Shown here: piece by piece, positions 4,210 through 64,000 of the stretch
How positions within the stretch are numbered: position 1 is the first letter of the stretch
Layout: every line of letters begins with the position of its first letter
Source: Schmidtea nova
Lineage: Eukaryota
Assembly: GCA_044892505.1 (NCBI GenBank)
Contig: CM097883.1
Location: forward strand, 242,234,001-242,298,000
Direction of reading: 5' to 3'
Length of the DNA: 64,000 bases
Notes under the pieces: generated by a model
The model's input: the letters and a program-made list of their open reading frames with translations, nothing else
The model's database searches: none
Told to the model about the DNA's origin: nothing
Made by a program: the position numbers and the translations under genes

Positions 4210-4210
4210 T

Positions 4211-4795: not shown

Positions 4796-4821
4796 CCCGG
4801 GTTCGCCACCACGCCCATTTC

Positions 4822-5160
4822 AATAAATATCAAATATACACAAAAATTCATCACACACACAAAATATCATCACATATGAAATTTCATCACAAATTATCAT
4901 CATACTATAGTGCACTAACATAGAAAATACATCAAAAATCATCAATAATTACGAACAAAATATCAAAAATATATAGAAATTCATCACATACACACAAAAT
5001 ATCAAAAATACATAAAACTATCGCACATACAAAATATCATTACATACATGAAATATCATCAAATAAATCATCAATAATACACATAAAATATCAAAAGTAC
5101 ATATAAATTCTTCGCACACATATAAAACGTGTTGTCATACTATATTGCATTAACATAGTA
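4822..5160 (+). repeat. Degenerate minisatellite (AAATATCATCACA-like), left arm of an inverted pair
   Basis: Reverse complement aligns by eye with ~6815-7225. Confidence 0.8.
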
Positions 5161-21207: not shown

Positions 21208-21342
21208 AACTTATTTTTATTTTTAATTTTAATTTGAAACTCTTTTTATATTATTCCGACAAATTATCCGAAATATTTAACTCTGCCGAAAACACCTCAC
21301 AGTGATTATAAGAATTTGACAATTTGTAATTATATTAATGTA

Positions 21343-22239: not shown

Positions 22240-23040
22240 TATGATTAATTTGATGGAGTCAATTTATTTTGACAATATAATCATGACAATTTATCAACTT
22301 ACAATTTCTGATCTCGCTAACATTTATTGACATTTTTATGGTGATGGACAAAATTTTAAGTAATTTTGAAAAAATATTTTGTTTTGAAAATATTCTTTGT
22401 AAATTAATTTTTTTAACTATTTGGAAAATGGTTTATATTTTGATTTATAATTTAATATTTCAATTCAATAAAGTAAATAATAATAATAAAATAAATAATA
22501 CTGATTGTTTAAATTAATTTAAATAAATAAATTACTGTTTGTTAAAATAAATTATATTTATGACGCACAAAGATCAACAAAATGAAATAATATTCCAAGA
22601 TTAAAAATAATTCTGTTTTCAAAACAACTCTGTTTTGAAAACAATTTCAATCAACTCAAGTAGCAAAATAATAAACAATATTGGCAAATTAAGTCCCTTA
22701 AAATTTAGTATATAAACTGACTGATTTTTCAGTCAAATAACTCCTAAAATCTTGTAATCTAAGAAGAGTTACAATTTCGGTAGACAACATTTGTAAAATA
22801 AAAAAGAGCACATAAAATTTATACATCATAGCGTAGGAGACTGCATACACTTGCATAACTCGTATAAACACAAGTATATACTTATATATTGTTGAAAGTT
22901 GCATTTTTATCAAGAAATATTTTTTATCAGATTGTAAAATATTGTAAAAGATAAGTAAAACTTAATAAACAGACTTAGTTCTTTTTATTTATATACGAAC
23001 CATCAAGTTGAAATTCTCAGAACCTCAACAATATGATCGG
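22240..23040 (+). repeat. Diverged inverted duplication, right copy (partner ~16350-17120)
   Basis: Same blocks as the left copy in reverse order and orientation. Confidence 0.75.
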
Positions 23041-24849: not shown

Positions 24850-25152
24850 ATGTCTAAGTCTTGCAAAGTTCGGGACATCTTCAGTAATAAATCTGAGACG
24901 CCATTTGGTCTGTGTTCTGATCTCGTGTGTCGTTTTACTTGTAATGGTTTTAATATCGCATGCATTGGAGAGACTGCCCGTCATCTCTGTACACGAGTTC
25001 AAGAACATGCAAGAAAGAGCGGAACGAGTAACATTATTGAGCATAATAAGACATGCAAGAAAAGCATTGATATTTCCAATTTCAAAATACTGTCTAGGGG
25101 TTTTAAAAATTATTATAAACGTGTGAATAGTGAGGCTTTGGTGAGAAAATGA
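24850..25152 (+). pseudogene. GIY-YIG endonuclease of a Penelope-like element
   Basis: CRFTCNG..CIGETARHLCTRVQEH..SNFKIL..EAL. Confidence 0.8.
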
Positions 25153-26707: not shown

Positions 26708-27209
26708 TTAAAGGACCCCAACGACTGGCTGGATCAACCATTATTTATAATAAAATCAATATTTTTATTAGAGAAATTATATTATTACATGTACAGAATT
26801 ATGTATAGTATTATATGTAATAATTGTAATATGATTTTAGATTTTTTTAATATCTTAATCTAGTATTTAAAATTATCTTTTAGATATTTTTTAAATTAAT
26901 AGTAATAATTAAGTTATGATATATATTTATTCGTTTAAATATACACAATTAACTTTTCATTTCCGCCTCTTGTTGTTATTGATAAAATTCCGGCCTTTTG
27001 TATTGTCCTATACAGTACCGGGTCTGTCATAAATGTAAGGTGTCCAATGCACACGGGTGGCCGAAGTGAAGCCGAAATGTCGTAAAAACATAAAATTATG
27101 TTGAATTGAAAAACAATAATAAGTTTTTAAACTGAGATATTCGCAGTTTTTATGGGCTCTCAATGTTAGTAGGGGATAGTGAGCGCACAACCCCACTTTT
27201 TTCAACTAG

Positions 27210-27975
27210 CAACGGTTGCTAGGGTAAATACACACATCAAGATATTCCTCAATTCAGGTGTTGCCAGGGTGAACGTGCACACACATCAATATATATATTC
27301 CCCGATGAACCTGTTGCCAGGGTAAACACACACACATCAAAATATTCCTCGAGGCAGGTATTGCTAAGTTAAGCACACACATTACTATATAATTACCGGG
27401 AGATGTTGCTAAGGTAAATACACACATCAAGATATTCCTCAATGCAGGTGTTGCTAGGGTAAACACACATCAATATATATTCCCGAGGATCCGGTTGCCA
27501 GGGTAAACACACACATCAATACATTCCTCGAGGCAGTTATTGCTAAGGTAAGCACACACATTAATATATAATTACCGGGAAGATATTGCTAGGGTAAATA
27601 CGCACATTAAAGTGTAGTGCATTGGAATCTGTTGCTAAGATAAACACGCGCGTATAAGGAGTCACCAAGGAACCTGTAGTTAAGGTAAACACACACACAT
27701 CATTATATATTCACTGAGAAACCTGTTTCCAGGCTAAACACACATCAATATATATTCATATAGTCAGATGTTGCTAAAGTTAACACATACACATCAATAT
27801 ATAGTCCTGGGGAAGATATAGTTAAGGTAAACACACAGATCAATATATAGTCCCGGGGAAGATGTTGCTAGGGTAAATACACACATTAAAGTATAGTCTC
27901 CCTGTAACTATTGCTAAGGTAACCACACATGGTAATATTTAAGTCCTGAAGTAACTATTGCTAAGATAAACAAAC
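27210..27975 (+). repeat. ~45-bp minisatellite, ~17 units, with a duplicated 4-unit higher-order block
   Basis: Core GTTGCYAGGGTAAACACACACATCAA recurs; units 1-4 resemble units 5-8. Confidence 0.9.
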
Positions 27976-28476
27976 CATTGTGTAACCCCCATGACTACTG
28001 TTGGTAACGTCTAAATACACAACATATTAATTATTATCCGTACCACAAACGAAAAAATGTTCTTTACTTAATTAAATGAAATTTTTGTTTGAATGTACTG
28101 GCTAACATTTTGAGTAATTGATTTGTTTTTTAACTGATAACTTTAGAAAATCGAATGTGGGAACTATGAAAACAGATGGAATTAATTCGAGAATTGTGAC
28201 AATAGTCAAAATTTTAAAGACGATTCAACAGAGTGCAACTGCAAGAGCAGATGAAATTTATTAATATTTGTAAACAAAAACAATTATTTTTACAATAAAT
28301 AAAAACGAATTACACAAATCCTTAAAATATTACACTAATCAGGTGAAAACCCTGAACGATAAAACCGATTCAAATCTGGACAACACATAAAATTTTTAAA
28401 AACAATTAAACATAACAGTCTAAAGAAATATAAAACTAAATATAATGAAACCAATTATTTTTTAACAAAGTTTTAT

Positions 28477-31400
28477 TCAATACAAATCTGAATTGGATAT
28501 ATAATTGAGAGCTGGATCTGAAACTGGATCTGAAACTGGAACACCAACCTGATCTTTTGATTGGTCTATAAACGAGCCACATCCCTTATAATGTCCGTAT
28601 GCAAGACTTTCATTTTTATCAACCCAAAGTCTTTTATCATCAAGATTAGTCAAGGCAATTTTCGAATATTTATTAGTAAAGAGTTGGTGATTCTTACTAA
28701 CTATTCTCGACTGATCAACAGAAACTATTGAATTATTATTATAACAATCCAGCTACGACTGATGATTCAGTTTAGTATCCTTCAATGTCATACCCTTAGC
28801 CTTAATGCACTCTTCATCGCCTAAAAGACTAAAACACTTTGGTCTAAGGAATACCCACTCATCATACTTGAATCCTTTATTCTCTTCTTTGAATTTACCA
28901 ATGACGGAATCTAGGTTCCTACTGTATAATGGGTGATTCGGATCATAATTAGAAGTGTCAAGTAAGTTATCTCTTATCATCGCAGGTAACAGAACATCTA
29001 ACCTACAATTTCTAATCTCAAGAAAAAATGAATCGGTGTCACCAGCAACGATGTTAATTTCGCAGTTGAAATCATTACGATATTTTTGTAATTCTTCATA
29101 CTGCAGTTGATACATCCTAAGTTTAGATAAATCCAGTACAGTTTGGCCAATGTAGCTGGGTCTATCTAAACACACAGAGTCCTTATTAAGTAAGACAGAA
29201 ACTAGGTCATCGTCAATTCTATAAGTTTTTCTAAAGTAGGTTTTGAAGTATATGTAATCAGTTTTGATGCTGATTTACATAGTCGTAAATTGAGTCGTTT
29301 CTTAAGATTTTCAACCGTTTTTCCATAAAGACTATTATTCAAGAGTTTGTATTAGTTTTTATCTAAAGCTGTAGAAGATGCTGCCCTAAGTTCAGTGTTT
29401 GTATCTATATATTTTTTAAAAATGGGTTTCTGATTGTACTGAACAGCCCGATGAACTCGTGTTATTTTAACACCCAAAGAAACAAAAAGCTTGAGAAGCC
29501 TCCAATGAACAACATAATTGAACTTTGGATAATGCGTCAGCATTAACTTCTCAACCTTTGAACCCGGAGCACACATTTTCTCTGCTGCTACCGGAAAATC
29601 ATTTAATTTATCTTGAATTTCTGAAGGTATTTCAAGATCCACTTCAAAAGTCACGCCATAAGTCAAAATAGTCAAATCAGTATCCATTAATTTAATTAAT
29701 TTATTTAATTTATTCTCATCAGTGATCCATTTAAATTCACCATAAGGTAATTTTTGACTTAAAGCTCACCCGTATAAATTATTTATGTCAATGTATAAAA
29801 GTTCAGTCGTTTCGGAGGATACTACATGGTGCTTGTTGACAAATGTCAAACCACCACGGATCCCCCCTTCGAAAAAATTATAAATCTCCATATCCTGGAG
29901 CAACTCAATAGGTTCCTCCTAGGTAATAAGCGAAGAAGCCCACGACATACCTGGAATCCCCAAAAAATTCAAAGGTTCAAGTCTATTGTGAGCTATTGAT
30001 TTAGCCCTAAACTGTTGAAAGAAATCAGCAAGAAGAAAAACATCCAGTTTAAGGTAGACCATCATATAGTCACACAGAGTGTGACACTGGGATTCCCTCC
30101 AAATCACCAATGCCTTGTCATATTCGTCTTGTTTAACACCTTTCCAGATTGGTGGCAACTCATAAGTGTTGTTAAGAATTTCTAAAAATGTTGCAAAATC
30201 ATAAGGAAAAATACCCTTACAGTCAACAATAGTCCCGGTGAATTCAGATCTAGTCAAAGGCAAACAAGAAAGAGTCTTAACAGCGTCATTTAAACTAGAA
30301 TTTACAAACTGACAAGAATCGATGAATTTAATGGTTAAATCACCGACCCTTGCTGATAAAGTTAAGAATTTTTCACTGGTTGTAGGAATACAAGAAATTT
30401 TCCAAGTTTTGAAATTAGCCAAACCATATTTAAGAATATGATGCAAGTCATAACCCTTTAAATTATGAAAGATAACGGGTAAAAACTTGTATAACCGACG
30501 GGATTGATTACAAGAATTACATGCTGCACCCAAATATTCACCAGTGTAGTGATCATGGTCTCTGACTGGTTGTACTAAAGTTTTCCTACAAAGATAACAA
30601 ATAGTAGCAAAATCAAAAGATTGTTGATTAGCCGATGTCATAAAAAGAGGTTTCTTGTAATTTGTTTTATAAAAAGGATAAACAATAGTTTCAGAAATAT
30701 CACTAATTTCAATAAGAAACTTAGTAACGCAATCAAGACCTAAGAAACTCCTGTAAATATTTTCTCCAGTAAAGTTATTTACAAGTAAAAGACCGGCAGA
30801 TATTGGGACATGTCTTTGAAAGTACTTATCATCAGTAGGTAAAATTTCCTCAAAATCGGCATAAACAATAATAGGTGGGGTAATTGTTTTGCCGCAATTA
30901 CTAAATTGTAAATTTTTATTTCTAGGCAGAGTATAAAGAGTTGTGCCTAATTGATTTTTAGCACACAACTGTTGATGACAATCGAATGCTTCCTGTTTTC
31001 GAAATCCATTCAAGCATCGATGACACCATATACTTTGTACGCGAGCAACAGAAAGAGATTTATTGTCGTAATTAAAAAGCCTATCAATATCGGTAACTGC
31101 AATATAATGAAAAGATTCACCACTTTCCAACAAAATCAAGTTAATAGGAGTACCACCGACAACTTTTGACCTATGAATTATATCAACACAAGAGTGTTTA
31201 AAAACTTCAGGATTTGCCAAAGTATCAAGAAGAGCATCCTCATCATAAGAAAGAACGTTAATTGCAAGTCCAGGGTTTATAGCCTCAAATTTCATGATAT
31301 TACAAAGTCTCATGGGCATTTCTGAAGGGTCAAAGTCAAGATCAGAAATATTATAATTATTTGCTCTATTTCTATTATTACGATCAGTTACCTCATCATA

Positions 31401-32237
31401 TTTCAAAATAGCTAAAATACTATAAATGAAACATAAATCATCGGAATTAATTACATTTACTGTACAATGTTTCGCAACTAAAGATTGAGGGGTATTTATA
31501 TGACCTCTGCCATTCAATCGACTAATTTGGGCAAATTTAGTTAATACAAAATGGATTTCATTAACTTTGTTAATAACCCAGTTACTCCCTTTATCGTTAA
31601 TTAATGCTATTTTTTCATTTAAAAGAGTGATACCCTCGTCAAAAAAGGTATCACTCATAGGTCTCGCAGAATTTGAAATGATGAATGATTGGAATTCACC
31701 ATCTTTTTCAAACTCTACATCAATACAAAATTGTATTTTCACTGAACCCATCTCATTAATAACATTATTTAATTTATTAATTAAAATATCAGGTAAAATT
31801 AATGTTTTCAAAACCAAGTGAGAAACATCCATTTTCACAATGGCGTGAGATTTTCTCAAATCAAATTTAACGTTAGGAAAAAGGGACCCACCATATTGAA
31901 CATCTATGGTGTTAATGTCATTATTAGAACTTGTGTCAGAGTCGGAAAGAATTTTCATATCGGATATTACCTCGTCAACTATATTACTTAATTTTCTAAC
32001 TTTTGTAGGTAGTGGATTATCGATAAGGATTTTTCTTTTATTATTAATAATATTGTTATCACTATCACTATTATTTATTATTAAATTAAAAATGGATTTT
32101 TTCGAAGATCTAAATTTCCTTAAATGATCCTTATGGTCATCATAAAAGTTCAAAAAAGTCGAATTTTGGGTGGTCTTACATACGGGACATATAAAAAACG
32201 TGGCTCCTTTATACGAATATCGGTAATATTTTCCCAT
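28477..32237 (-). pseudogene. Protein-primed DNA polymerase B with N-terminal zinc fingers and an endonuclease VII-like domain
   Basis: YADFE, ICYLC..VRDHDHYTGEYLGAACNSCN (EndoVII), FHNLKGYD, KFIDS, KGIFPY, YIDINNLYG, NSLYGK, GDTDS, LRPKC, KAKG, LDDKR; stops and frameshifts 3' of 29919. Confidence 0.95.
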
Positions 32238-35200
32238 TAATTCAATACATTTATTGTCATGAATTGATGATCGGCAAAAATTCGGAAAAAGTTTACCTTA
32301 AATATTAAAAATAATTAAAAATATGAACAATAAATGACAAGTATTTTAATATTAAAATTAATGTCATTATACAATAATTAATATAAATTAATTAATAATT
32401 ACAATAATAAAAATTTAATTAAATAATTTAAAAATTATGAAAAAAAATATTAATTAATTTCAATTATTATATTCTTAACTAGAATTCTTTTAATAATAAG
32501 TTTTACTCAAAGATGTAAAATTTAAATTATTTACAAGTAATTTAAAAATATTAATTTAATATAATAATATTCATATAGAACACATTATTTACTATGATAG
32601 AAAATAAATTATTTATTAATAAATAATTTACAAAAACTTTAATTACTAAAAAATTATTAAAAAATAAAACAATAAGTAATATTAATCAATATTCAAATTA
32701 ATTAATTAATTATTATAAAAAATTAGAATAATTATAATTAAAACTAGAATTGTTTTAATAATTAATTATAAAATAAAAATTCAAATTATGTAAATAATTT
32801 TCAAAAATTAATTAAAAATAATTTTAAATTTAGATAATTCAGCTAATTATTTTAAGTTGTCATTAGTATTTATTAACTTCACATAAATATTACAAATCTT
32901 ATTGAATAATAAATAAAGATTAATTATCGATAAAGATTAAATCGATAATGAAAAATAATTCTTAAATAATTAAACTTAATATTTATGAACAAAGGTAATT
33001 AATTATAAATTGAATTTAATAAATAAATTATTAAAATAAATCAATACTTACAGTTATTTTCTTTTATCTTTTCCTTTTTCAGTTTATTTTTTATTAAACT
33101 ATCCATTGTTTCAGATTCTTCAACATTGTAACCAATAAAGTTGTTCATATTGTTGTCGACATCGTTGTTGTAATCATTGATCATGGTAATATCCATATTG
33201 TTGATGTTGTTGTTCATTTTATCTAAAATAAGTTGATTATTTAAAAATTTTAAAACAAAAATTAACTTACCAAATTTAGGTTGCAGTAAAAAATGATTCT
33301 CAAATGAAAAACTATTGTTTATATACTAAATTCAAAAATTTTTAACCAATCAAATTCAAGGAAACATACACACACGTTTGTAAATACCACAGTGTAATTT
33401 ATTTTTACAATTAAATTTTTTAAAAATTTTTAAACATAATTTATTGTTATAAATATATATCGTCATTTAATGTTAAATATCAATTATTATTTAAATAAAA
33501 TGTAATAAATTTAGATTAATTTTAAAGTTAAATTACACTAATAAGTTATAAAAATTATTACAAGTAATTATAGTTAATTATGATTAAAAAAAATAATAAA
33601 TTTAATTATTCGATAAATCGTAAATTAATTGAAATAAAAATTAATTAATTGAAATAAAAATTAATTAATTAAAATAAAAATTAATTAAATAAAAGTTAAC
33701 TAATTATTCACAAAGTTATTAGTTTTTACATAATGTATTATTGTAGAGAATTAGAATATAAATTTTTACAGTGAAAACACAATTAAAGTATCAATCAGCA
33801 AATAAAATCAATTATTTACAACAAAACCCATGTGTAACACGATAATTATTAAATTTCTAATCAAAAAATTTAGTGGAAAATTTATACATACAATGAAAAC
33901 TCTAAAAAATTATTTTAAATTGTTCAAAAATAACAATAAAACATGTGTGCAACAAGAAAAATGACTAATTTTATATTTTAATTTAAGTCATTTTATAGGA
34001 AATTAAATTCTACATATACACTGTTAATGTGAAAACTCATTATCTTTATTATAACATCAAAGAAAACCAATTAATAACAACAAAACATGTGTGCAGCGCG
34101 CAAAACACAACATTTTAAATTTTCATTTTGGCCATCTTGTAGAGAATAAATTTCTGTCTATAGATTGTTACAGCGAGAAAAACGAATAATTTCAATTTGA
34201 GGCACAAATAAAGAAAAAAGAAAAACGGGAGAAAAATTAAAAATGTTGATAGTAGAGTAGGGGGAGCGCCCAAGAACAGGAAGAGACCCCCCAAAACAAA
34301 TAAATTAAAATTAATTAATAAAAATAATTAAAATTAATATAAAATAAAANNNNNNNNNNNNNNNNNNNNNNNNNNNNNNNNNNNNNNNNNNNNNNNNNNN
34401 NNNNNNNNNNNNNNNNNNNNNNNNNNNNNNNNNNNNNNNNNNNNNNNNNNNNNNNNNNNNNNNNNNNNNNNNNNNNNNAAAAATAAATTAAAAATAAATT
34501 AAATTAATTAATTAATAAAAATAAATTAAAAATAAATAAGAATAAAATAAAGACTTCATTTACACAAAATAATAAAATTAAATTGACTTCATTTAAACAA
34601 AAAAAAATTATTTTAAAAATTAACTTCATTTTAACAAATTAAAAAANNNNNNNNNNNNNNNNNNNNNNNNNNNNNNNNNNNNNNNNNNNNNNNNNNNNNN
34701 NNNNNNNNNNNNNNNNNNNNNNNNNNNNNNNNNNNNNNNNNNNNNNNNNNNNNNNNNNNNNNNNNNNNNNNNNNNNNNNNNNNNNNNNNNNNNNNNNNNN
34801 NNNNNNNNNNNNNNNNNNNNNNNNNNNNNNNNNNNNNNNNNNNNNNNNNNNNNNNNNNNNNNNNNNNNNNNNNNNNNNNNNNNNNNNNNNNNNNNNNNNN
34901 NNNNNNNNNNNNNNNNNNNNNNNNNNNNNNNNNNNNNNNNNNNNNNNNNNNNTCCAAATATATATTCTGCACAATATATGTCGAGAACTTAATTCTCTTC
35001 ATCAGGTGCTACTCAATCTTCCATTAAAATATAAATCAAATAAATCGATTTTTCAAACAAATTAATAATAATTTTTAAACTAAAATGTATTTTTATAAAT
35101 TTTATAAAATAATCAAAAAATTGAAAACGATTAAAAATTTTTTAATTTAAATAAATTAATCCTAAAAATATAATATTCTCTTTTTACAAAAAATATTTTT

Positions 35201-38814: not shown

Positions 38815-39430
38815 TTAACTAGAAAAACAACAAAAAACACAAATTATTTTAAAAACTAAATCTTTATTTAAATCAATCTTCTCATCTTCAGGCAAATTGT
38901 TCATCAAATTCAGCAGCATCTTCACACACCCCCATAACCACATCAATTCCCTTATAATATCCATAAGCCAGACTAACATTTTTCCCACCCAAAGTCTTTT
39001 GTCGTCAAGATTAGTCAAGGCAATCTTATAAGATTTATTAGTAAAGAGTTGATGATTCTTACTAACAATTCTCGACTGATCAACATAAACTATTGAATTA
39101 TTATTGTAACAATCCAGGTACGACTGATGATTCAGTTTAGTATCCTTCAATGTTATACCCTTAGCCTTAATGTACTCTTCCTCACCTAAAAGACTGTAAC
39201 ACTTTGGCCTAAGAAACACCCTCTTATCATACTTGAATCCTTTATTCTCGTCTTTGAATTTACCAATGACGGAATCTAGGTTTTTCGAATACAAGGTATT
39301 ATTTGGGTCATAATTCGAAGTATCTAATAACCTATTCCTAACCATAGCAGACAAAAGAATATCCAACTTACAATTCTTAACTTCCAAGAAGAAAGAATCT
39401 GTATCACCAGCGACTATACAAATCTCACAC
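38815..39430 (-). pseudogene. pPolB C-terminal fragment, paralog of 28477-29200
   Basis: IVAGDTDSFF, IGKFKDE, FLRPKCYSL, KAKG, LDDKR; visibly similar in DNA to remnant B. Confidence 0.92.
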
Positions 39431-39944
39431 TTGAATTAATGTCATATAAAAAACAACAAAAAACCCAATTTTAGAAATAAATCTTTATTTAAATAAATCT
39501 TTAGCAATTAATTTATATTGTAAAGGTCATCATGTATACCTTTCTCTTTTCAGCAACCATAATATGCACAGATTGTTGTCTTTTAAAATCGTGACAACAA
39601 GCACATACATTGGTGCATGAAATACGCATTGATTCCTTACCACCAACGCAATTTTCAACGCACTTGATGCCAGCCCCAAGGTATATTTTATGTACCAACA
39701 ACTCAGGGGCACAATAATCGAGATTATTTTTAATCTTTGGGTATAAATCTTGGATCTTCTTGAGAAGTACTTCGAGAAAATAAACTAAAAGAATAAATTA
39801 ATATAAAAATAAAAATAAAAATACTCTTACTTTTAGAAATTTTCAAATTTTCACAATCAATGAATAACAATTAATACAAACAAAATTTATTTAATTAATT
39901 AATTAATGTATTTATTTCATTGATTATATTATAAACATAAATTT

Positions 39945-41465
39945 TAAAATCCAAAGTTTTTATTCCAAGCATAACAACTTTTCCGCTGCCAAAGACATTG
40001 ACATATACTTGATCAAATTTCTGTAGGCGTAATGCAGAGAATTTTTTTTTTAATATAGCGACCTACCCTGGTAAGTAAGCCTACAAATTTTATTTTCAAA
40101 CAAAAAATTCTCTGCTCCGAAGAGACAGGTCCTGTCCTTTTTATGATACCAGGCCGGCCGTAGATGGCACAGGCTAATTTCCATCCAATGTTTTAATTCT
40201 TCATTCCTCCTAGCCAAAGTCCGGGGACCAACGGCTTATTTTACCAGGATAACATTCAAGAGCAGCATTCAGGTCAGCATGCTGGGATGGGTTTCATATC
40301 GGATTACAGCATCAGACATTCAGGAGTAGGTTCTGAGATATTTAGAAACATAGGGTATTCAGGTTTGTAGTCATTCAAGTTTGCATAATTTTGAATTTCG
40401 TAGACATCTGAGTTCATAGACATTCGGGTTCGTAGATATTCTTATTCGTAAATACGCAGGTTGACAGGCATTTAGTTTTATGGAAGTATAGGCATTTATT
40501 AGAAGATCTCTGGGAATAGTTATTGTAGAGTAGTGGGGTTTTATTGATTAACATTCCTGAGTAGGTTCTGAGATATTTAGAAACATAGGGTATTCAGGTT
40601 TGTAGTCATTCAAGTTTGCATAATTTTGAATTTCGTAGACATCTGAGTTCATAGACATTCGGGTTCGTAGATATTCTTATTCGTAAATACGCAGGTTGAC
40701 AGGCATTTAGTTTTATGGAAGTATAGGCATTTATTAGAAGATCTCTGGGAATAGTTATTGTAGAGTAGTGGGGTTTTATTGATTAACATTCCTGAAGGTA
40801 AAGTTTAAGCATTAGATCAAGGGTTGATTCATCTGGTTCTTTAAGTAGGAATTGTTTTTCTTTGTGATAGGTTTGTGCATCGAATATCGTCTTAATCAAT
40901 TCTGTATTAGGTATTTTAAGTACTTCACTTAATTTTTCTTTGCAGATGCAAGTGAACGGGTACCAATATAATGGTTGGCAGCAGAATAGCACTTTTGTAG
41001 GAAAATTCTTTGATTGTAAGATATGTTTGATGTTCGTAATATCAGCTATTAGATTCTTAGGGTTTATGGTTGAATATTGTTTTTCATTTGTATGATCATT
41101 ATTGAGGGTAATTATGAAGGGTAATTTGTCTTTGTATTCTTCAAATTGTGTTTAGTCGGTTAGTAAATTCTCTGTTGTATTCTAGTTTGAACACACAAAG
41201 ACATTTCTTTTGTAATTCGTATAAATTAATAAATTTGCTGACATCGACCGTCACGGTAATTGATTGAATCTCTAAATTTTTAATCTTGAATTTCGAATCC
41301 CCAGGCTTTAACGGTTGTTGGCATCCCATTACCAGACACTTGCCAGATTTGAAGAAGATGATTGGGTACTTGCCGCTTCTGTCAACAACTTGCTTCGATT
41401 TGCTACTCGGGAATATCATGCCGGGAACTAAACATTTACCTTTTTAATTGATGTTGCTCAACATT
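39945..41465 (-). pseudogene. TATA-binding-protein-like gene split by a ~1.1-kb insertion
   Basis: Repeat 1 KYPIIFFKSGKCLVMGC..FKIKNLEIQSITVTVDV..INLYEL (41180-41420); repeat 2 FSALRLQKFDQVYVNVFGSGKVVMLGIK (39955-40041). Confidence 0.65.
40324..40794. repeat. Near-perfect 235-bp tandem duplication
   Basis: GTAGGTTCTGAGATATTTAG at 40326 and 40561. Confidence 0.92.
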
Positions 41466-47935: not shown

Positions 47936-47955
47936 TTTGATCTTTTTATATTATT

Positions 47956-48124
47956 ATTATCAATAATTCTCATAATGATGACTATAGATCAAAATTTTGT
48001 TTTAAACAATAACACAATATTTCGCACAGCCTTTATCACTTGATAAAGACTGTGCCGAAATATTGTGTTATTGTTTAAAACAAAATTTTGATCTATAGTC
48101 ATCATTATGAGAATTATTGATAAT
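47956..48124. repeat. 169-bp near-perfect palindrome (83-bp arms, 2-nt loop)
   Basis: Arms differ by one mismatch and one indel; a third copy of the arm lies at ~50960-51049. Confidence 0.95.
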
Positions 48125-48774
48125 GTTAATAAAAATGTTTAATAAATAAATATTTGTATTGAAAATTTTTATTATTTTTAATTCTTAATTTTTCCAATTT
48201 TAATTAGATTTGTTTTGTTTAATATTTTACGTTGCGGTAATCTAATTCGTGTGCTCATATGTGTATCCATGGTAATGTTGATGTGTTGTGTATCATGTAA
48301 TAATTATGTATATAAACGAATAAAAATCATTTTAAAATCACTTTTCACTTGATCCCAATTTTGGTAGGTAAATTTTTATTTTAAAATTTTTTGAATTAAT
48401 TTTTATTATTTTTTAGAATTTATTGATATTACAAATAATTTATGAAAGAAAATATGAGTTACAATTTAAATGCAGAAAATGTGAAGAATTATTTTTCAAG
48501 AAACAAAAAACAAGCAATAAAATGTAAGAATTGCTTTATTTTTAAATTTTTGAAAAGTATTAACTTTTATTAATTAAATGTTAATTAAATTCAAATTATT
48601 TGAATATTTAAATATTACATTTGTTGAATTATTTAAATATTTATTAAATTTTAATTTTAATTTTAAACGTAATAATTAACTATATAAAGATAATGAATTT
48701 TGGATAATTATAATTGATTCAGCATTAGCTGTAATTATAGCCGGGAACCCTCTAGTAGTTGCTGGGCCCATAAT

Positions 48775-49415
48775 TATCGTGTCATAGGTTCCCCCTAAAG
48801 CCGTTCCAGGGCCTTGAATTGCACACTGGTAAACCATTTCCAATGAGTATGAACCAGCACTTAATTCATTCGCATAGCTGCAACGTTTCACAGCCGGTAT
48901 AATTTGTCCACCGCTTCTATGGATGACATTAGCATGCCAAGTAACATCATGAATATTAAAACTATAACCTCGCATATTTTCCTCACATAATATGCTGTCT
49001 TCTAATTGAAGGCAACAACACCACTTTCTCTAATCTCATTCCAATAGTGTTCACCTTTCGACACATCAACCACCATACTCGGTCCATTGTCATCGGGCCC
49101 GAAACACCAAATATTTCTCGATTCACTAACATACCAGTCGTAGGTATCGACCAAGAATCTACCCCTTTCTTTAACATCAGTTCGAGAAGTGAATTTCTCT
49201 GCTTCAATATTACTTGCTAATCCTTCGCTCATTGGAGCCGCAATCATATAAAGCTGATTGTGCTTGTTTGGAGATTTACTCAAACACAGCTCACCACTGA
49301 TTTGTGTGACTAATTCTCGGTAGGATACAACAAGATCACTTTTCTTTATCAGAATGTAAGCATGACTTTCTTCGAGATAATTTAAACAGATTTCCAAATG
49401 AAATTCTTCAGCTCC
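48775..49415 (-). pseudogene. EEF2: Elongation factor 2 internal fragment, intronless
   Basis: HLEICL..KKSDLVVSYRE..LSKSPNKHN.LY..IWCFGPD..NMRG..IHDVT.HA..IHR.GGQIIP (diphthamide-loop region). Confidence 0.95.
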
Positions 49416-49429
49416 ATCGATTGATAGCT

Positions 49430-49625
49430 GTATCACTAAAACCGCTAATCCTTTAGCATTAAGCCGAGCTGTTCTACCAGTCATGTGAACGTAATCATCA
49501 AATCCTTTTGGAAGATCATATTGCTCAGTTAATGACCCCTTTGGCAAATCTAAGCCTCAGCTAGCAATATCCGTTTCAAACAAGACACCATCTTTGTTAA
49601 ACTTACTAAATGAATGAACAGAAGA
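49430..49625 (-). pseudogene. DEAD-box RNA helicase C-terminal fragment
   Basis: VLFETDIAS*GLDLPK..QYDLP..DDYVHMTGRTAR (motifs V and VI). Confidence 0.8.
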
Positions 49626-57455: not shown

Positions 57456-57689
57456 GTTATATTAACTTAATCATAAATACTAACCTTAATTATTTATTTT
57501 ATATTTTATAAAGATTTTATTGGATGAAAAAAAATAATTTAATTTTCTTTTAAAACATGATTTTTTGTGCGAATTGAATGTTGATGAAAGGTTTGTATTT
57601 TATAATGTAAAAATTCTCGGAAGATAATCTTTGTAATGAATTTTTGAATCCCTGTTGTAGAATCTGGTATTTTGTTTCTTCTATAGATG

Positions 57690-58634
57690 GAGTTGTTTAA
57701 TGTAATTTTCCCCAGTGTTCGTAATAATTACAGGTTTTGTTTTTAGTGTGTTCATTAAGTCGGGTGCGAAAAGTTCTATGTGTTTTTATTATGTAAGTAG
57801 CGTCACATTTTTGACAAGAAAGTTTATATACTATATTTTTAGAAAAGCAAAAGCATCGGGTTGTGAAACGGCAAAGACATTTATGTTTTGAGATGTTTGA
57901 ATATGGTGGCTTTCGAATTTGTGATATTAAGGGTGCGGAGGTTATGAAAGTAGAACGAATATGGATAGGCAAATCTGTTTGGTTAAAAATGTTGGTGATT
58001 TCATTGGCTGTGGTGTCATTTAAGAAATGTAATCTTAGGTATGTTGTGTGTTTGCTATTGTTATTGTGTTTCTGTTGTTTCTTATAGTTGCGTTTATTGT
58101 GGTATTGTTCGTTAATAAAGTATTTTTTACAAATTCTTCAGGGTATCCATTTTGGAGGAATAGTATTTTGAGGTTTTCTAATGTTTCTTGTATTTTTTTA
58201 GCGTGTGAACAGTTTCTTATGGCTCTTTTTCTTTTTCCGATTAGTTATGTGATTTTGCGTTGAAGTGAAACTTGGCTTTTCCATGGGAGGATATGACCAC
58301 TATGTAAACTTTTAGAATAAAGCTCGGTGTTTGCATTTAGTGTATCTGGGCCTTTTGGGAAACTTACCATGGTATCTAAAACGGTATTTTACCTTCAGTA
58401 TTCGGTGTTTTAAAAGTGAATTGTATGTTGGTGTTAATAGAATTTGCGTGTGATAGGATTTGATTGAGAGGGATTGTGAAGACTATGAAGATGTCGTCGA
58501 TGTATCGTTTCCAGAAAAGTATTTTGTCCCCCAAAAAAAAGATATGATCTTAGATTCTATAAAGTTCATGCAGAAGATAGCTAAGATGGGAGAAAGGTTA
58601 TTACTTGTGGCTAATTCATGAGTTTGTTTGAATG
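57690..58634 (-). pseudogene. Penelope-like element, 3' part (RT C-half plus GIY-YIG)
   Basis: FKQTHELA..LSPILA, WKRYIDDIFIV, IQFT..IPFLD, NIVYKLSCQKCDATYI.KT.R.F.TRLNEH. Confidence 0.9.
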
Positions 58635-59133
58635 TGTTGGTGTGTTGTGTAACAAAAATCAAACTCTGAATCCGCTTTCTTCTCTTTCTCTTTTTACTTC
58701 GTTCTTCCTTGCTCTCTAGGGTCCAACACACACATAAAAACTTAACTGTTCATACACCCGTGAATTACCCTAATCGTTCACGTTGGAAGTGTGTATAACA
58801 GCCGATCGCAAGCCAGCAGGTGAGCTCCTTCACAAGAACTACTCCTGACTTGTCGCATCGTTCGGGTTCTAGCTTGACCGATAGAAGGTCTCGTTATAAC
58901 TCTCCTCACCCTGTATTTAGGTCTCTCATTTTGGGTGTTCGCTCTTTATTTCCTAGATTACCCTTCAGCCTATTACTTTATTATTTCTATTAATTACTTT
59001 GTTGCCTACGGTTTTACGAGTCAATGAAACTGAAGTTTATTGGTCGTTATTAATTTATTTAATCCAAGTCTGGCCTAACAAGAAATAACACATTTTTATT
59101 TAAATACATATATTTATTCCCATAACATTACAA

Positions 59134-59568
59134 TCACTGTTTGCGTTTAACGCCTGTTATTCCAACACTGTTTATATCGATGACCATTTTGTTAGCATCG
59201 ACCTCCATCCTCAGTTTCAACTGTTGTCGGCGTTGTGCGTGCGATTTCCTTCGTTTTCGCTTTGTTGTTTGCGGTATTGGTATCTCGATTTCGGTATTTG
59301 TTGATGGGTCTGGTGTGGGAAACCATCTTTCCAACGTTATTGGGCGAATTAGCTCTTTAAGGTTGTCCGTTATGAACTTCTCTGTGATGAATGATCTGCA
59401 GTTCTTTAGCTCAATTTTCAAGGCATCTATCTCTTGTTTCTGATCCTGTATAACCTGCGTCGCCCTGATCAATTCTTCCTTTACCTTCTTCATTTCTGTC
59501 GGTGAGAAATAACTGTTTTCTAGGTCGATAAGCCTCCTCTTCAACTGTCCTATAGTTTTCTCGTCCAT
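59134..59568 (-). CDS. Orphan coiled-coil protein with a basic NLS-like stretch
   Basis: Intact 144-aa ORF, heptad region, KRKRRK; AATAAA ~15 nt after the stop. Confidence 0.65.
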   Translation of the reverse strand: MDEKTIGQLKRRLIDLENSYFSPTEMKKVKEELIRATQVIQDQKQEIDALKIELKNCRSFITEKFITDNLKELIRPITLERWFPTPDPSTNTEIEIPIPQTTKRKRRKSHAQRRQQLKLRMEVDANKMVIDINSVGITGVKRKQ

Positions 59569-59939
59569 GGCTCTTTTCTTTGATGGAAGGCTGAATTTTA
59601 TTCGTAAATTTCTGGGTTAATTTTTAATCGCAAACGAGGGTATATGCACGACCCTTACTTGGTGACTAAATACATGTACCGGGTATCTCCTCCAACCCAT
59701 TCCTAAATCTACGCTTTTGTTGCTTAATCGTTAATTTTTGTATTACTCTACCGGATTTACTATCTCTTTTATTTTTATTGAATGTAGATTGGAGTATTTA
59801 CTGACTGTGGTGTCCTTACACGATGACCTTTTATTTTTATTCATTTTAACATTGTGATTATTAAACGAGTGAACAGAGGAAAAACAAATACACGACGAAA
59901 CATATAATTAATTTTTAATACAGGTGCGGTGAATCACAT

Positions 59940-60506
59940 TCAAAAATATTCGGCGATGATCTCGACCTCACTGTCGTCATCTTCCTCTTCGCTAAGCGTT
60001 GAAGGACTGTATGGTGAATCTGTCGGACTCGGAGATGGAGCCGGGGCGAACACGAATCGTCCCGTGCTCAGGAACTCTTCTTGCGGAATCTCGCCTTGAT
60101 AATAAACTTGGTATCTCCCGGGAATTTCGGTGGGAGTCTCGACAAAGTATTTCGCCTGGTTTGGCCAGCAAGGGCGATCCACGTTAATCGGCCATTCCTT
60201 GCTGCCATGCCAAATGATATCCGATGGACCGTCTCGGAACAGACTGAACGGCGGGGCAATTCCTGTCCTTTCGAACTCCTCCTTGTGCTCTTGTAGAATC
60301 TCATTGGCCAACTCAGATGGGATCGGCTTGAGTGGCATGAGCATCATTAGGTGCGTATCATACATCCGCGTCTCCTCCGCATAATCTCTCTTCCTCATCA
60401 TCTCTCCTCGGGGTCCTGTGACTTGAATTCCGATATAATTCATTGTTCGTGAATATCTAAGTATACAATATTTTGTAATTAGCAATTTATATTCCGCATC
60501 CCCCAT
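59940..60506 (-). CDS. Orphan 188-aa protein with a Pro/Ser-rich acidic tail
   Basis: Intact, GC-elevated ORF; no motif recognised. Confidence 0.65.
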   Translation of the reverse strand: MGDAEYKLLITKYCILRYSRTMNYIGIQVTGPRGEMMRKRDYAEETRMYDTHLMMLMPLKPIPSELANEILQEHKEEFERTGIAPPFSLFRDGPSDIIWHGSKEWPINVDRPCWPNQAKYFVETPTEIPGRYQVYYQGEIPQEEFLSTGRFVFAPAPSPSPTDSPYSPSTLSEEEDDDSEVEIIAEYF

Positions 60507-60902
60507 TATATGCCCTCGTGTACGCCTCAGTCACTTGTTTAGTAATTTTCAGGGAAAATAGTTATTTATTTTATGTTTCGTGATTTACGAGAGTTACCAA
60601 ATGACGCTTATGTAGGGTAAGGGTCCCGCAGTTTCCCATATTGTCAATTTGTCAATTCTCCATGAAATGTTATGTTTCAGGTTGATTATCATTCGACTGA
60701 AGTTATTTTAATTCACCAATTCAGTTGCGTTAAGCAATTAATTATGGTCATTATCTCTATAATCGTTGTGTGTGGTATTCTCGGAATCTAAAATCTACGA
60801 CCAATTATCAACTACTTGCGAGCTCTAACAGGAACTACGAAGGCATCGCTAATTGCCTTTCCGGTAATTATCCACTAATCTCAAGTTAATTGATGTCGAC
60901 TC

Positions 60903-61112
60903 ATGACTCGTGCAATTAAGGGATTGCTAATCTATCTCGTGTCTTCGGTTGCTGCATTTATCGGCTGTATCTACTTGTTATCAAAAATTCGCTCGGGTAT
61001 TGGATTGGGTTGTGAATTGCTAGAGAGATTCTCAGGCATGATTATGAAATCGTTGATAATACTATGCGCAGGAATTTTTCATATCATTTGGTGGAAATTG
61101 GTAAGCTATTAG
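60903..61112 (+). CDS. Possible small two-TM protein
   Basis: 69 aa with two hydrophobic segments; opposite strand to the other cargo ORFs. Confidence 0.25.
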   Translation: MTRAIKGLLIYLVSSVAAFIGCIYLLSKIRSGIGLGCELLERFSGMIMKSLIILCAGIFHIIWWKLVSY

Positions 61113-61750
61113 TGACGGGATTAATTCGATTTTATGCCTCAACTCTTTCATGAGCAAAACTCATTTTGCCGGCCGTAGAAACTGGCTTATATCTGTTAAA
61201 TGGACATGCGCGATTTTCTCTTGGGTTTACTTTGATCTTTTCGTGAAGCTCATCAAAATTTCAACGAACGCAGTCGCTTTGGATTTTTCTAAAATTTAGC
61301 AGGTTTCTCAGTCAACATTTTTCGCTTCCTACGAGTAATATTTAGTTTCGACGGTTTGGATGCTGTTACCGTTTCCCGACATTCACCCATTTCCTACTGT
61401 TCATAAAAAGGTCTTTACGGAGCAACCCATCTTCGCCCCGTGCCGAGACACGAAACAAAGATGAATCCCCCCGGAGAGCTGACAATCAACTGGATCGCCG
61501 AACTCTCGCATTATCTATGTGCAATTAGTGAAAACGAAATATGATTTATGATTTATAAAATTTTATTTGACATAACAAGTTACTTACAATATTCTTCCGA
61601 TTTGGTCACGATATTTCAGCAAGTTCTTCCTCGAGTGTCGTTGAATTTTCTTCGAATCGATAATGGTGTGCTTGACAGTGAAATTTTTGTGCGAGTAATA
61701 GTGTAGAGTGATTTTTAGTTGGTATAAATGACATAACATTAATTGACTGA

Positions 61751-61835
61751 CCTGAGCGCTTTCTTATATAGTAAAATCGACGCTCAGGCAGCCAATCAGA
61801 ATCGAGTAACCTTTTTATTGGTTAAACGCTCGATT
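61751..61835 (-). promoter_or_regulatory. Candidate Pol II promoter (CCAAT boxes plus TATATAAG) with inverted repeats
   Basis: CCTGAGCG/CGCTCAGG inverted repeat around the TATA box; CCAAT on both strands; AATCGAG/CTCGATT inverted repeat. Confidence 0.5.
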
Positions 61836-62362
61836 TTCTATTAATTTATTTTATTTTATTTTCCTAGGTATTATTCGTGATTATTCTATTATTTTCCGTT
61901 ATTATTCTATTATTCTCATTATTCATTTCATAATTATTCTTTTATTCTCTTTATTTCCTGATTTTTACTTAAATTTCACATGTTTGCCATTTTTCTCGCT
62001 TTTTCATTTATTATTTTTGTTTTAATTGTGCTTTTCTTGTTAATTGTCATTTTTTATTTGTTTTATTATTATTTTTTTTTACATTCTTCATTTTATCTTT
62101 ATTCTCTCATGTTTAGTTTTCACCATTATCCGTTCCTTCATCAACCCAACAACACTCGGGGACCCCTTAAGACAGCGTCACGCGTCTTAAGTTACAGCGA
62201 AAACTATTTTCAAACATTCACACTAACATGGTTATTTACATTGTACAGATTTTTCAGATGGGGTTTTAACAAGACAAGCAGATGTCACATAAGGTGACGG
62301 TCATTATACATACATTTATCAGTTCAATGGGTTTTTGTTGTTATTATCAGTTTCATTCATAG

Positions 62363-63007
62363 TTAATGTTCATTGATTCTTCGGCTCGTTGACGGTTTCT
62401 GATTTTCTTCGGGGATTTCGTATTGATCTTGATTTGGGGATTGTTTACTCATTGATCTTCGCGAATTTTTCGAATTGAGATTTGGCAGGGGTTTCGTTTC
62501 ATTGATCCTCTCCAGTTTGTAACTTGAGAAGGATTTCTTTGGGGGTTTTCTTTCTTTGGATCTTCTGTTTCTCGGGAACTTGGGTTTGTTACTTGCAAAT
62601 CTCATCTTTCTTTTGAGGATATAGGTTTGAAAAGACATCCACCCGATTAATATGACAATTACGACTGTTTTCACTGTTATAAGGGCGATAATGGCAATGA
62701 TCCATTTTTCTTGGTTTTCTTGTTCGGTTTTCACAGCTTCTTTGAGGGATTCTCAGGTTTTCTTGATTTCGGTTTGTAATTCCTTGATCCTCAGGACTTC
62801 TCGGGTTAAGGTTGGTTGAGTTTGTTCGTTGTATCCCACTTCGATTATTCTTAGTTGAGTTCTTTCTATCTCTCTTTTTATTTGGGTGAGGGTTTGCTCG
62901 ATATTTTCGAAATCGTCATTGATGATTGTTTGTAAGGGTTTTCTTTCTGCTTGACTTTGATGTATGTACACTACGACTAGGATTATCAACAAGTTTTCAG
63001 GTTTCAT
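62363..63007 (-). CDS. Type I membrane protein (signal peptide, coiled coil, TM, basic tail with YEIP); one in-frame TGA at 62753
   Basis: The two tracked ORFs are in the same frame, 7 codons apart. Confidence 0.7.
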
Positions 63008-63113
63008 GAGTCGTTTTCGGATTCTGGGTTTTTTACATTCAACATTTTATCTTTATTCTCTCATGATTAATTGTTTAGTTTTCACCATTATCCGTTCCTT
63101 CATCAACCCAACA

Positions 63114-63450
63114 AATGGTTTTTCTTTAATTATGACAATATCTAAATTTATTGCTAATTTTAGAAGTTCTATAAAGTCTTGTTTAGTTAAGCCTGCGATG
63201 TCAGTGTTGGCTTTATGAGTTTCAAAGAAAGAAACTGCGATGTCACAAATATTATTCTTTCCGTGAAGAGGAATAGATCCGTAAAGATTGGAAACATCAA
63301 AAGATCCCCAGGAGTACTGTTGTCCTGCGTTTAACGGAAGAGAGGTATTTGTAATTTCAGAGACAAATTTAGTTGTGTTTTTAAGATGACTAAAACCAAA
63401 TTCAAAAGTGTTTGCAATCAAACAACGTTTTCTCTTTTGAGATGCCTCTT
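63114..63450 (-). pseudogene. Penelope-like element, RT N-half
   Basis: HLKNTTKFV..SFDVSNLYGSIP..FIELLKLA..IIKEKP. Confidence 0.88.
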
Positions 63451-64000
63451 TTCTATCTTTTTCTCTATCTTGATTGACTATAAATTGTTTTTTTATGCCT
63501 ACTATGTCAGTGCTTGTAAAATGCTTTACTCTGTATTACCTTGTTTTCGTTAATTTTAAAGTATTTAATTGTCGTGCGTGTGTTTATTTTGATGCTTTTA
63601 AACAATCAGAAATTCTATTTCTGTCAACCAAACATTTCTTACAATTTCAATTAATTTTTCGTATTTCTAAAATTTAGTTCAATTACAGATTTATAAATTA
63701 TTTAAATATTTATTCTAAATTATAAATTTTTAAAAACTATTAATTTTACACAATGCCAACAAAACTTAATTACCTTTAACTTTTCAATTATCCAATTTTC
63801 CAATTTCTAAAATTTGTTTATCTCATATATTGTAAATAGGAAAACTTTCAAATTACTTTCACCGCTAATAATGTAACGTTGAAAATATTTATTTATTTCC
63901 ATATTAATTACCAATGCTAATAGTGTTATTTTTTATAGAAAATGAGTAATTCAAATGGTGAAAATAATGTTTATCACAAATTAGCTACTCCGATGGTGTT

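Follow-up and report, generated by a model that had tools for sequence, protein, structure and literature searches.

A 4.5-kb integrase-type insertion with orphan genes: candidate remnant of an LTR retrotransposon with a long, gene-bearing LTR

What is the 4,479-bp insertion (58635..63113, minus-strand orientation) that interrupts a decayed reverse transcriptase (RT) frame in an animal genome, and by which route did it bring there a set of orphan genes? In the 64-kb stretch of DNA analysed here (the window), the insertion and its target, found to be real in this analysis, are delimited as follows:

58631..58634, no strand: left target-site duplication (TSD), AATG
63114..63117, no strand: right TSD, AATG
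57570..58630, minus strand: target, 3′ part of a decayed Penelope-like element, frameshifted, with RT C-terminal motifs and a GIY-YIG-like end
63118..63535, minus strand: target, 5′ part of the same Penelope-like RT frame

We take the target to be Penelope-like from these RT motifs, from a weak GIY-YIG match (E 0.093) and from its weak similarity to a different GIY-YIG-like piece of the window (E 4e-4); Pfam detects no RT in it. The boundaries, which the initial annotation had placed by the AATG duplication and by restoration of the RT frame, are confirmed: among 200 x 160 candidate boundary pairs, 58635/63113 is the sole one with TG..CA and a duplication of at least 4 bp, and the empty site (element and one AATG removed) is stop-free across the junction, offsets 1, 4 and 7 giving the same frame and the remaining five of the eight offsets giving 4 stops each. 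The termini, TGTTGG at the start and CCAACA at the end, form a perfect inverted repeat of 6 bp (10 of the first 13 positions match), and no longer terminal inverted repeat (TIR) is found at the element ends; a TSD plus a 6-bp inverted repeat would arise by chance at one given boundary pair with a probability of about 4e-7. The likeness of these ends to integrase-processed LTR ends, also seen initially, holds when they are compared with the LTR att consensus TGTTRNR (inverted YNYAACA; PMC3601003), which is matched at 7/7 positions at 63113 and at 6/7 at 58635, the att inverted repeat being accompanied by a 4-bp TSD, within the 4–6 bp of Ty3/Gypsy. An insertion of the integrase type, with LTR-like att ends, is supported.

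The interior offers little that is recognizable. As already stated in the initial annotation for RT, integrase (IN) and transposase, a six-frame Pfam scan (stops as X) finds no RT, IN, transposase, gag or pol domain in the element, its single match having E 0.19; no Rfam family (ribozymes included), tRNA or phage DNA match is found either. The right terminus is repeated within the element (62075-62151 versus 63029-63113, 88% over 85 nt, E ~1e-25, z=19), 962 bp inside from the outer end. The right-hand features are:

63029..63113, minus strand: outer terminus, 85 nt, putative 5′ LTR stub (U3 start)
62363..63007, minus strand: ORF A, 214 codons, one internal TGA
62152..62191, minus strand: spacer before the inner terminus, with a 26-nt stem-loop and then AAGGGG
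62075..62151, minus strand: inner terminus, 77 nt, putative 3′ LTR start
58635..62151, minus strand: putative complete 3′ LTR, 3,517 bp, TGTTGG..CCAACA

The initial annotation does not contain this second copy of the terminus. The two copies are the only ones in the window; they are identical over their first 42 nt and differ by one 8-nt indel and 2 adjacent substitutions. The outer copy closes with a run of A and there, 21 nt ahead of ORF A, composition changes abruptly, C going from 5% to 21% (p=3.5e-4); the inner copy passes smoothly into its downstream sequence (p=0.57). On the minus strand, the order is therefore an 85-nt stub, a composition break, ORF A, a weak G-run, the second terminus and 3,517 bp with ORFs C and D. 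The G-run is the AAGGGG at 62168, found once in the element, a PPT-like but poor tract with a purine run of 6 that ends 11 nt before the inner terminus rather than abutting it; the stem-loop in the same spacer is weak (z about -2). A G-run resembling AAGGGG also precedes the 3′ LTR of a neighbouring Gypsy element.

The internal copy of the terminus, the one-sided composition break and the G-run before the inner copy together give the pattern of a 5′ LTR stub, the 3′ end of an internal region and a 3′ LTR. With odds that we place a little above even, the element is a defunct LTR retrotransposon, most likely of the Ty3/Gypsy type, with an internal deletion; it would consist of a 5′ LTR stub, ORF A and a complete gene-bearing 3′ LTR of ~3.5 kb. 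A full element with two LTRs of ~3.5 kb would have integrated here, into the Penelope-like RT gene, and would later have suffered a deletion that began at base 86 of the 5′ LTR, took in gag-pol and stopped 21 nt short of ORF A, the 3′ LTR being spared. The unique boundaries and the empty site that reopens the frame favour this reading, as do the G-run before the inner terminus, the strand bias of ORFs and AATAAA signals described below, and the ends fitting the att consensus. The decay is coherent: the termini differ by 2–3 changes and ORF A has a single stop (at 1.5% per site, 0.55, 0.44 and 0.32 stops are expected in A, C and D, respectively). No TGG for a PBS follows either candidate LTR end, a loss expected under the deletion. 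With gag, pol, integrase and PBS gone, this copy allows neither phylogenetic placement nor assignment to a superfamily. A plus-strand orientation of the LTRs was rejected, because no TGG/PBS follows AAGGGG on the plus strand and the ORFs and AATAAA signals lie on the minus strand.

Several observations weigh against the deletion, the absence of gag, pol, integrase and PBS among them. A paired full LTR is not seen in the window, the repeat within the element being limited to 85 nt of one end; the PPT is poor, and the promoter and intron described below are not significant. The endpoint 21 nt before the ATG of ORF A is a convenient coincidence, better explained by selected capture, and a 13-bp repeat around the gene block would suit a block that entered a short LTR at a later time.

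Besides the known repeat, no diverged LTR pair is found within the element (21 segment pairs, both orientations), the next-best internal alignment being gappy, with z=3.8 against z=19. A candidate third, diverged terminus copy at 61304-61389 was rejected (p about 0.4–0.6). CpG is not depleted in the element, which thus gives no sign of decay through methylation.

The left 3.5 kb, the putative 3′ LTR, holds what looks like a separate transcription block:

61771..62074, minus strand: low-complexity block, rich in A and poor in C, running on from the inner terminus
61764..61821, minus strand: candidate internal promoter (CCAAT 61821, ATTGG 61796, TATATAA 61770, Inr-like TCAGTC 61750)
61515..61734, minus strand: ORF B candidate (ATG 61734, 42 codons to TGA)
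59940..60506, minus strand: ORF C, 188 aa, intact, soluble, Pro/Ser-rich and then with an acidic tail
59134..59568, minus strand: ORF D, 144 aa, intact, heptad repeat 26-53, basic NLS-like KRKRRK 103-108
58635..59133, minus strand: putative R/U5 end (CCAAT 59043, Inr-like TCAGTT 59033, last AATAAA 58950)
59048..59060 and 61839-61851, no strand: 13-bp A/T direct repeat

All three long ORFs (A, C and D) lie on the minus strand. The 188-aa acidic-tail ORF and the coiled-coil ORF with an NLS of the initial annotation are borne out as ORFs C and D, the first longer than chance allows (P=0.005), and a second ORF as long as D appearing in none of 1000 shuffles. The TATA/CCAAT module reported earlier is present but counts as weak evidence (P=0.08). 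The poly(A) signals noted earlier prove to be enriched (25 of the 26 AATAAA on the minus strand, against 11.7 expected, a number reached in 0/1000), tempered by the clustering of 10 of the 25 in one A-rich block; 4 lie within 170 nt past the stop of ORF C and 6 within 184 nt past that of ORF D. The TGA of ORF B may be followed by a 73-nt GT-AG intron (61587-61515, P=0.27); downstream of it, 61514-60507 has no long ORF and no frame resolved by codon-position score, and may be a decayed gene or non-coding. Assignment of the left end as U3/R/U5 is inferred from the signals listed, together with a GT-rich stretch (~58745-58725) and the att end. In the proposed element the long U3 would thus hold the promoter, perhaps B, and then C and D with their poly(A) signals; genes so placed would be copied into both LTRs and retained by every solo LTR. 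ORFs D and C might, speculating from composition alone (coiled coil and NLS-like patch, and acidic tail, respectively), be nuclear regulators of element transcription or of host silencing. The adjacent Gypsy element has two identical LTRs, each with a fragment of ribosomal protein eL6. This local precedent supports the idea of genes within LTRs.

ORF A is a predicted coiled-coil, single-pass membrane protein, with a signal-like hydrophobic N-terminus (MKP), a helical heptad ectodomain of ~80 aa, one transmembrane (TM) helix (~103-121, preceded by ~100 aa; hydropathy peak 3.09 at 103), a polybasic stretch (at least three K/R within the next 15 residues) and a disordered tail. The type I membrane protein of the initial annotation thus survives as a predicted single-pass protein but not as an intact one, TGA occupying codon 85 (62753-62755). 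Under the deletion, ORF A would be an accessory gene downstream of pol, in the env/ORF3 position, and its protein would most likely act at the plasma membrane, either in the release of particles or in their spread between cells. It does not resemble an errantivirus env (F- or gB-type, a large cysteine-bridged fusion glycoprotein), being of 214 aa with no Cys, and no promoter is evident in the 106 nt upstream.

Searches with the ORFs returned no relatives. For ORF A (X at the stop), none of 343 candidates was confirmed, and Foldseek, run on ORF A, found no fold match (BFVD best E 0.44, PDB best E 5.7). For ORF C, a word-seeded search gave 41 candidates, none of them at E<=1; phmmer, run exhaustively against 1.84 billion representatives, gave 0, the ESM Atlas no usable match, GTDB genomes 286 pattern matches with 0 confirmed, and PDB sequences a best E of 0.83; its single-sequence structure model (pLDDT 36) is uninformative. 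ORF D has 0 relatives among 25 candidates and 0 in PDB, and its best ESM Atlas match (0.85, low recognition) is a lead only. Pfam, PHROGs and NCBIfam give just sub-threshold coiled-coil or TM-type matches to the ORFs. Hence the earlier description of these accessory genes as ‘virus-like’ is without homology support and, as no ORF has a relative or a fold match, the functional statements made above are all conditional. None of 10 window proteins is present in the protein collection by exact look-up; the genome is therefore poorly represented there, and ‘orphan’ status partly reflects sampling.

Among the other explanations, an unlikely one is that the whole 4,479 bp are one solo LTR, the U3 end of which grew by a template switch that duplicated the terminus, trapped ORF A and the old PPT, and then replicated. 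It is the closest to the giant gene-bearing solo LTR proposed in the initial annotation, of which the multi-kb gene-bearing LTR is retained as most likely for the left 3.5 kb, and the extension to all 4.5 kb is probably wrong, because the terminus is duplicated inside and composition breaks after the outer copy alone. Such growth would account for a junction that leaves ORF A whole, 21 nt ahead of its ATG, and for a decayed inner PPT and differing termini, as if the inner copy had been freed from selection, and captured gene pieces are found in the neighbour's LTRs; but where a single deletion would do, this reading calls for two additional events (a duplication that captures ORF A, then LTR–LTR recombination), both copies are still identical over their first 42 nt, and ORF A would lack an evident promoter.

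Somewhat less probable still is a composite, compatible with the deletion for the right-hand part, in which an ordinary LTR of ~730 bp, a usual length, received by insertion or capture a 2.8-kb gene block of other origin (61838-59061). The 13-bp repeats, possibly old capture junctions, closely bracket this block of promoter, ORFs B, C and D and poly(A) signals, and the flanking A-rich regions share three exact 12–13-nt words (P=0.0025, the pair being chosen post hoc; P=0.03–0.04 at 9–10 nt). Yet the repeat is of A/T only and lies in sequence rich in A, the shared words come in a different order on the two sides, and aligning the two regions locally gives no significant score (z=1.3). Nested elements with TIR and TSD show no excess (5 observed versus 4.6 expected), and the block does not end in a poly(A) tail.

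The remaining two explanations are both highly improbable. Ginger1 and Ginger2 have TGTNR termini and 4-bp TSDs like those seen here, but TIRs of ~40–270 bp rather than 6 bp, a transposase, and a CCGG/CCGT TSD (Ginger1) or RTATAY site (Ginger2) in place of AATG (PMC2836005). Mobilization in trans of a non-autonomous DNA transposon or cassette by such an integrase-like transposase would also leave the internal direct repeat of one end unexplained, and nothing supports the new class of integrase-mobilised cassette that had been suggested. A piece of some unknown DNA virus or Polinton-like element, integrated by an integrase with its own gene array, would suit the orphan ORFs, which lie apart on one strand and have poly(A) signals of their own, and PolB fragments are present elsewhere in the window. 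Against it, nothing similar to PolB, capsid or ATPase is found, neither BFVD nor phage DNA gives a match, no PHROG hit goes below E 0.004 (the value of a coiled-coil/TM-type one), and the long TIRs and 6-bp TSD of Polinton-type elements are absent.

The internally deleted retrotransposon, if correctly read, matters since LTRs are currently viewed as regulatory sequence and solo LTRs are taken to have no coding capacity. Through a 3.5-kb animal LTR with orphan ORFs that are intact and polyadenylated, retroelements could spread new genes across a genome, each solo LTR leaving expressible accessory genes in the host genome; such an LTR would escape LTR finders tuned to short repeats and homology-based annotation, and ORF A would be a new type of small membrane protein among the growing number of env substitutes. 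If the composite or a simple-decay reading holds, it is just a curious truncated retrotransposon. We tentatively propose, at odds somewhat short of even, an undescribed invertebrate LTR-retrotransposon lineage in which an LTR of 3.5–4.5 kb is a multi-gene unit, with an internal promoter and two or three orphan U3 genes, and a novel coiled-coil membrane protein replaces env; in its boldest and most speculative form, the 4.5-kb unit would be the replicating LTR, grown stepwise through gene capture. In the part of the literature covered by our searches, no invertebrate LTR is described in which U3 holds several genes.

The LTRs of planarian Burro are about 5 kb long. Burro/GYPSM1, a giant Gypsy with an internal region of up to 25 kb and a total of over 30 kb, is also animal, Gypsy-like, with multi-kb LTRs, accessory ORFs and an AT-rich invertebrate host, but its env lies between gag and pol, unlike the position proposed for ORF A, and plant Ogre elements have LTRs of 1.9–6.5 kb, likewise multi-kb, with the extra ORFs in the internal region and not in the LTR (PMC6431247). 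The Osvaldo lineage of Ty3/Gypsy, as tabulated (PMC3286476 Table 1), shares long LTRs, mostly 4-bp TSDs and copies with a single truncated LTR (2047/234 in one), but its LTRs are of 1.0–2.1 kb against 3.5 kb, LTR-borne genes are not mentioned in the parts of the paper concerned, and it has a tRNA-Lys PBS and pol, neither of which remains here. For ORF A, the nearest parallels found are the bdelloid rotifer Vesta4/Vesta6c ORF3s (PMC5408684), similar in size (210–230 aa), TM/coiled-coil nature and a position downstream of pol (under the deletion), with no clear env homology, and the small single-pass accessory sORF2/FAST-like fusogens of the MDG1 group, which share the polybasic stretch after the TM (bioRxiv 10.1101/2025.03.14.642691). 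The differences are that Vesta4 ORF3 is described with two TM regions, cysteines and RXXR, where ORF A has a single TM, begins with a signal-like segment and lacks cysteine, that the Vesta LTRs given there (159–551 bp) are far from 3,517 bp, and that the fusogens are defined by an ectodomain of 10–50 aa, an MGxxxS/T N-myristoylation motif and 60–210 aa, against ~100 aa, MKP and 214 aa. Coding sequence within U3 has precedents in MMTV sag and HIV nef, single U3-encoded ORFs in LTRs of ~1.3 kb or less, in contrast to the block of two or three spaced genes proposed here.

The element is a real, well-bounded insertion of 4,479 bp, read on the minus strand, which starts with TGTTGG, ends with CCAACA and has AATG at either flank. 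Of 200 x 160 boundary pairs scanned, only 58635/63113 combines TG..CA ends with a TSD of at least 4 bp, and, at one fixed boundary pair, a TSD with a 6-bp inverted repeat has a chance probability of about 4e-7. When the element and one AATG are excised, the minus-strand frame of the empty site is stop-free across the junction; of eight tested junction offsets, five give 4 stops and the remaining three give the same open frame. The initial annotation had fixed the boundaries by the AATG duplication and the reopened frame, and had described short inverted ends around an interior with no RT, IN or transposase; all of this is borne out. In six frames, with stops read as X, the best Pfam match to the element scores E 0.19, so no RT, integrase or transposase is left in it. 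The ends also fit the att consensus TGTTRNR, as given in PMC3601003.

The flanking target looks like a decayed Penelope-like element, a label resting on apparent RT motifs and on weak GIY-YIG matches, one of them at E 0.093; Pfam detected no RT in the flanks. The GIY-YIG-like piece at 57700-57879 is weakly similar (E 4e-4) to window 24802-25152 (+), a second GIY-YIG-like Penelope fragment. Near the left end, a second CCAACA 94 bp inside forms a mini TGTTGG..CCAACA unit (58635-58728, +), and plus-strand TATAAC (~58794), an AGGTGAG donor (58818) and a pyrimidine-rich acceptor-like site (~58957) could mark an antisense promoter but are probably there by chance.

The features needed in the following are:
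63029-63113, outer copy of the right terminus
62363-63007 (-), ORF A, 214 codons
62075-62151, inner copy of the right terminus
61515-61734 (-), candidate ORF B, short, with a possible intron
59940-60506 (-), ORF C, 188 aa
59134-59568 (-), ORF D, 144 aa
51064-57455 (+), neighbouring Gypsy element

The right terminus is present twice (88% identity, E 9e-26, z=19), an internal repeat overlooked in the initial annotation; a profile built from both copies detects no further one anywhere in the window. Their terminal 42 nt match perfectly, and the differences elsewhere come to one 8-nt indel and two substitutions side by side. Read along the minus strand, C accounts for 4/85 positions of the outer copy vs 42/200 of the adjoining sequence (p=3.5e-4), whereas the inner copy (3/77) adjoins an equally C-poor block (13/200, p=0.57). 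Because composition breaks only after the outer copy, the inner copy lies in its native context and the outer one stops at a junction that lies 21 nt upstream of the ORF A ATG. Directly upstream of the inner copy (minus strand) is the element's only AAGGGG, which resembles the G-run before the 3' LTR of the neighbouring Gypsy but is poor as a PPT, with six purines in a row, the last of them 11 nt away from the inner terminus. TGG is absent after the inner end on the plus strand, so that this end is not a 5' LTR/PBS boundary.

Probably, if with no great assurance, the element is an LTR retrotransposon that integrated whole and was then internally deleted. Integration of the full retrotransposon would have produced the AATG duplication, and a later deletion, which we infer, would have brought base 85 of the 5' LTR up against the end of the internal part. 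Still in place would be ORF A, as the final internal gene and in the env/ORF3 position, followed by the PPT region and a complete 3' LTR of 3,517 bp. This LTR would be subdivided into U3 (~3.1 kb), R (~100 nt) and U5 (~290 nt), the proposed R/U5 signals being TCAGTT at 59033 (Inr-like), the final AATAAA (58950) and GT-rich sequence around 58740; ORFs C and D would then fall within U3. With 1.5% of sites changed, the expected number of stops is 0.55 in ORF A, 0.44 in C and 0.32 in D, against 1, 0 and 0 observed, and the decay is coherent. The element, seen as a single copy carrying orphan genes, behaves as an LTR-retrotransposon remnant, a named family needing pol, which is absent here. The initial proposal of a giant gene-bearing LTR is probably right for 3.5 of the 4.5 kb, and that of a new cassette class found no support. 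The neat junction before ORF A and the poor inner PPT would also be accounted for if all 4,479 bp were a solo LTR grown by trapping ORF A, which is unlikely and requires more events.

The three long ORFs share the minus strand; C and D exceed chance (P=0.005 for the length of C; a second ORF as long as D in 0/1000 block shuffles). ORF A is broken by an internal TGA at codon 85. Their functions are putative throughout. The N-terminus of ORF A is hydrophobic (a signal peptide being judged from hydropathy only); heptad repeats span 26-60, and a basic stretch comes after a strong TM segment (hydropathy peak 3.09 at 103). The tail is disordered and the protein lacks cysteine; AlphaFold models it as successive helices (3-20, 25-58, 64-83, 87-139). 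No relatives of ORFs A, C or D were found in searches that covered proteins of near length, nor in further searches, which for C alone extended to an exhaustive library; Pfam, PHROGs and NCBIfam gave none above threshold, and 0/10 window proteins are present in a 15-billion-sequence collection.

The annotated poly(A) signals are upheld, with 25 AATAAA on the minus strand against 11.7 expected (0/1000 shuffles) and 1 on the plus strand; 10/25 are in an A-rich block, 4 within 170 nt after ORF C and 6 within 184 nt after ORF D; the 211 nt downstream of ORF A contain none. The TATA/CCAAT module exists as a CCAAT/ATTGG/TATATAA cluster at 61821-61764, but at P=0.08, and a candidate 73-nt intron follows ORF B (P=0.27). 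Neither a long ORF nor a resolvable frame occurs in the kilobase 61514-60507; a 69-aa hydrophobic plus-strand ORF inside it (60894-61112, +) may be a shadow of A-rich minus-strand sequence.

A 13-bp A/T repeat (59048-59060, 61839-61851) brackets the promoter-to-poly(A) interval, as would suit an ordinary LTR of ~730 bp that received a 2.8-kb gene block; the flanking A-rich regions have three common 12-13 nt words (P=0.0025, chosen post hoc), and 1/15 block pairs is prominent at 10 nt (P=0.03). The words do not run colinearly and the regions do not align significantly (z=1.3), and this origin is doubtful, slightly more so than growth of a solo LTR. A Ginger-type DNA element, which fails on TIR length and target as given in PMC2836005, and a DNA-virus fragment, for which no supporting similarity was found, are both very improbable.

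As for genes in LTRs, MMTV sag and HIV nef are known cases of protein-coding sequence inside U3. For foamy-virus U3, passages of PMC7828637 mention nothing beyond a miRNA cassette, and a search of article texts in a partial literature collection found no invertebrate LTR with a multi-gene U3. In PMC3286476, Osvaldo-lineage Gypsy elements have LTRs of 1.0-2.1 kb and mostly 4-bp TSDs, one copy having LTRs of 2047 and 234 bp. Multi-kb LTRs exist in planarian Burro and plant Ogre (PMC6431247); passages of PMC8532177, PMC13238120 and PMC13465017 contain no LTR details. Rotifer Vesta ORF3s are of 210-230 aa with TM/coiled-coil features (PMC5408684). Compared with sORF2/FAST-like proteins as outlined in bioRxiv 2025.03.14.642691, ORF A shares the polybasic stretch but differs in ectodomain length and myristoylation. 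Nor is ORF A an env of the F or gB type (PMC13524379).

The neighbouring Gypsy encodes RT, RNase H, integrase and a DUF7041 gag, with in-frame stops in pol (54476-78, 55619-21), between two 100% identical LTRs of 506 nt, which apparently end in AA instead of CA. In appearance it is a non-autonomous copy that captures genes: its leader has an Ig-like piece (V-set, E 1.5e-4) and both LTRs contain an internally deleted fragment of ribosomal protein eL6 (E 4e-11), so that elements of this host do carry gene pieces in LTRs.

The window (30% GC, no CpG depletion) is full of transposon debris. At 49002-49556 (-), a C-terminal fragment of a DEAD-box helicase and a fragment of EF2 domain IV share a single open frame, which can be read as a pseudogene or as a chimeric capture of host genes. 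The EF2 fragment matches animal EF2 best (top animal E 4e-48 vs 2e-37 for the first of the entries that we take to be fungal). The host is an animal and probably belongs to the invertebrates. Fragments of protein-primed PolB (DNA_pol_B_2, E 3e-9; Endonuclease_7) lie at 253-1155, 3341-4819, 28753-32297 and 38815-39435 with ORFs, without Pfam match, that presumably resemble Polinton/adintovirus structural genes; 28582-29070 and 38948-39435 are 84% identical.

Other repeats and transposons in the window
20063-20914, IS1595/Merlin-like transposase (E 3e-12), within 19817-21226, with inverted repeats of ~180 nt either side
16336-17098 / 22267-23032, two inverted repeats of ~800 nt with 73% identity, between which lie the Merlin-like element and an ORF that we assume to be Tigger-like
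4825-5158 / 6813-7225 and 47945-48135, foldback-like long inverted repeats accompanied by AT-rich satellites, plus an almost perfect palindrome of 190 nt
27186-27980 and 40316-40795, tandemly arrayed units of ~45-47 nt and 235 nt
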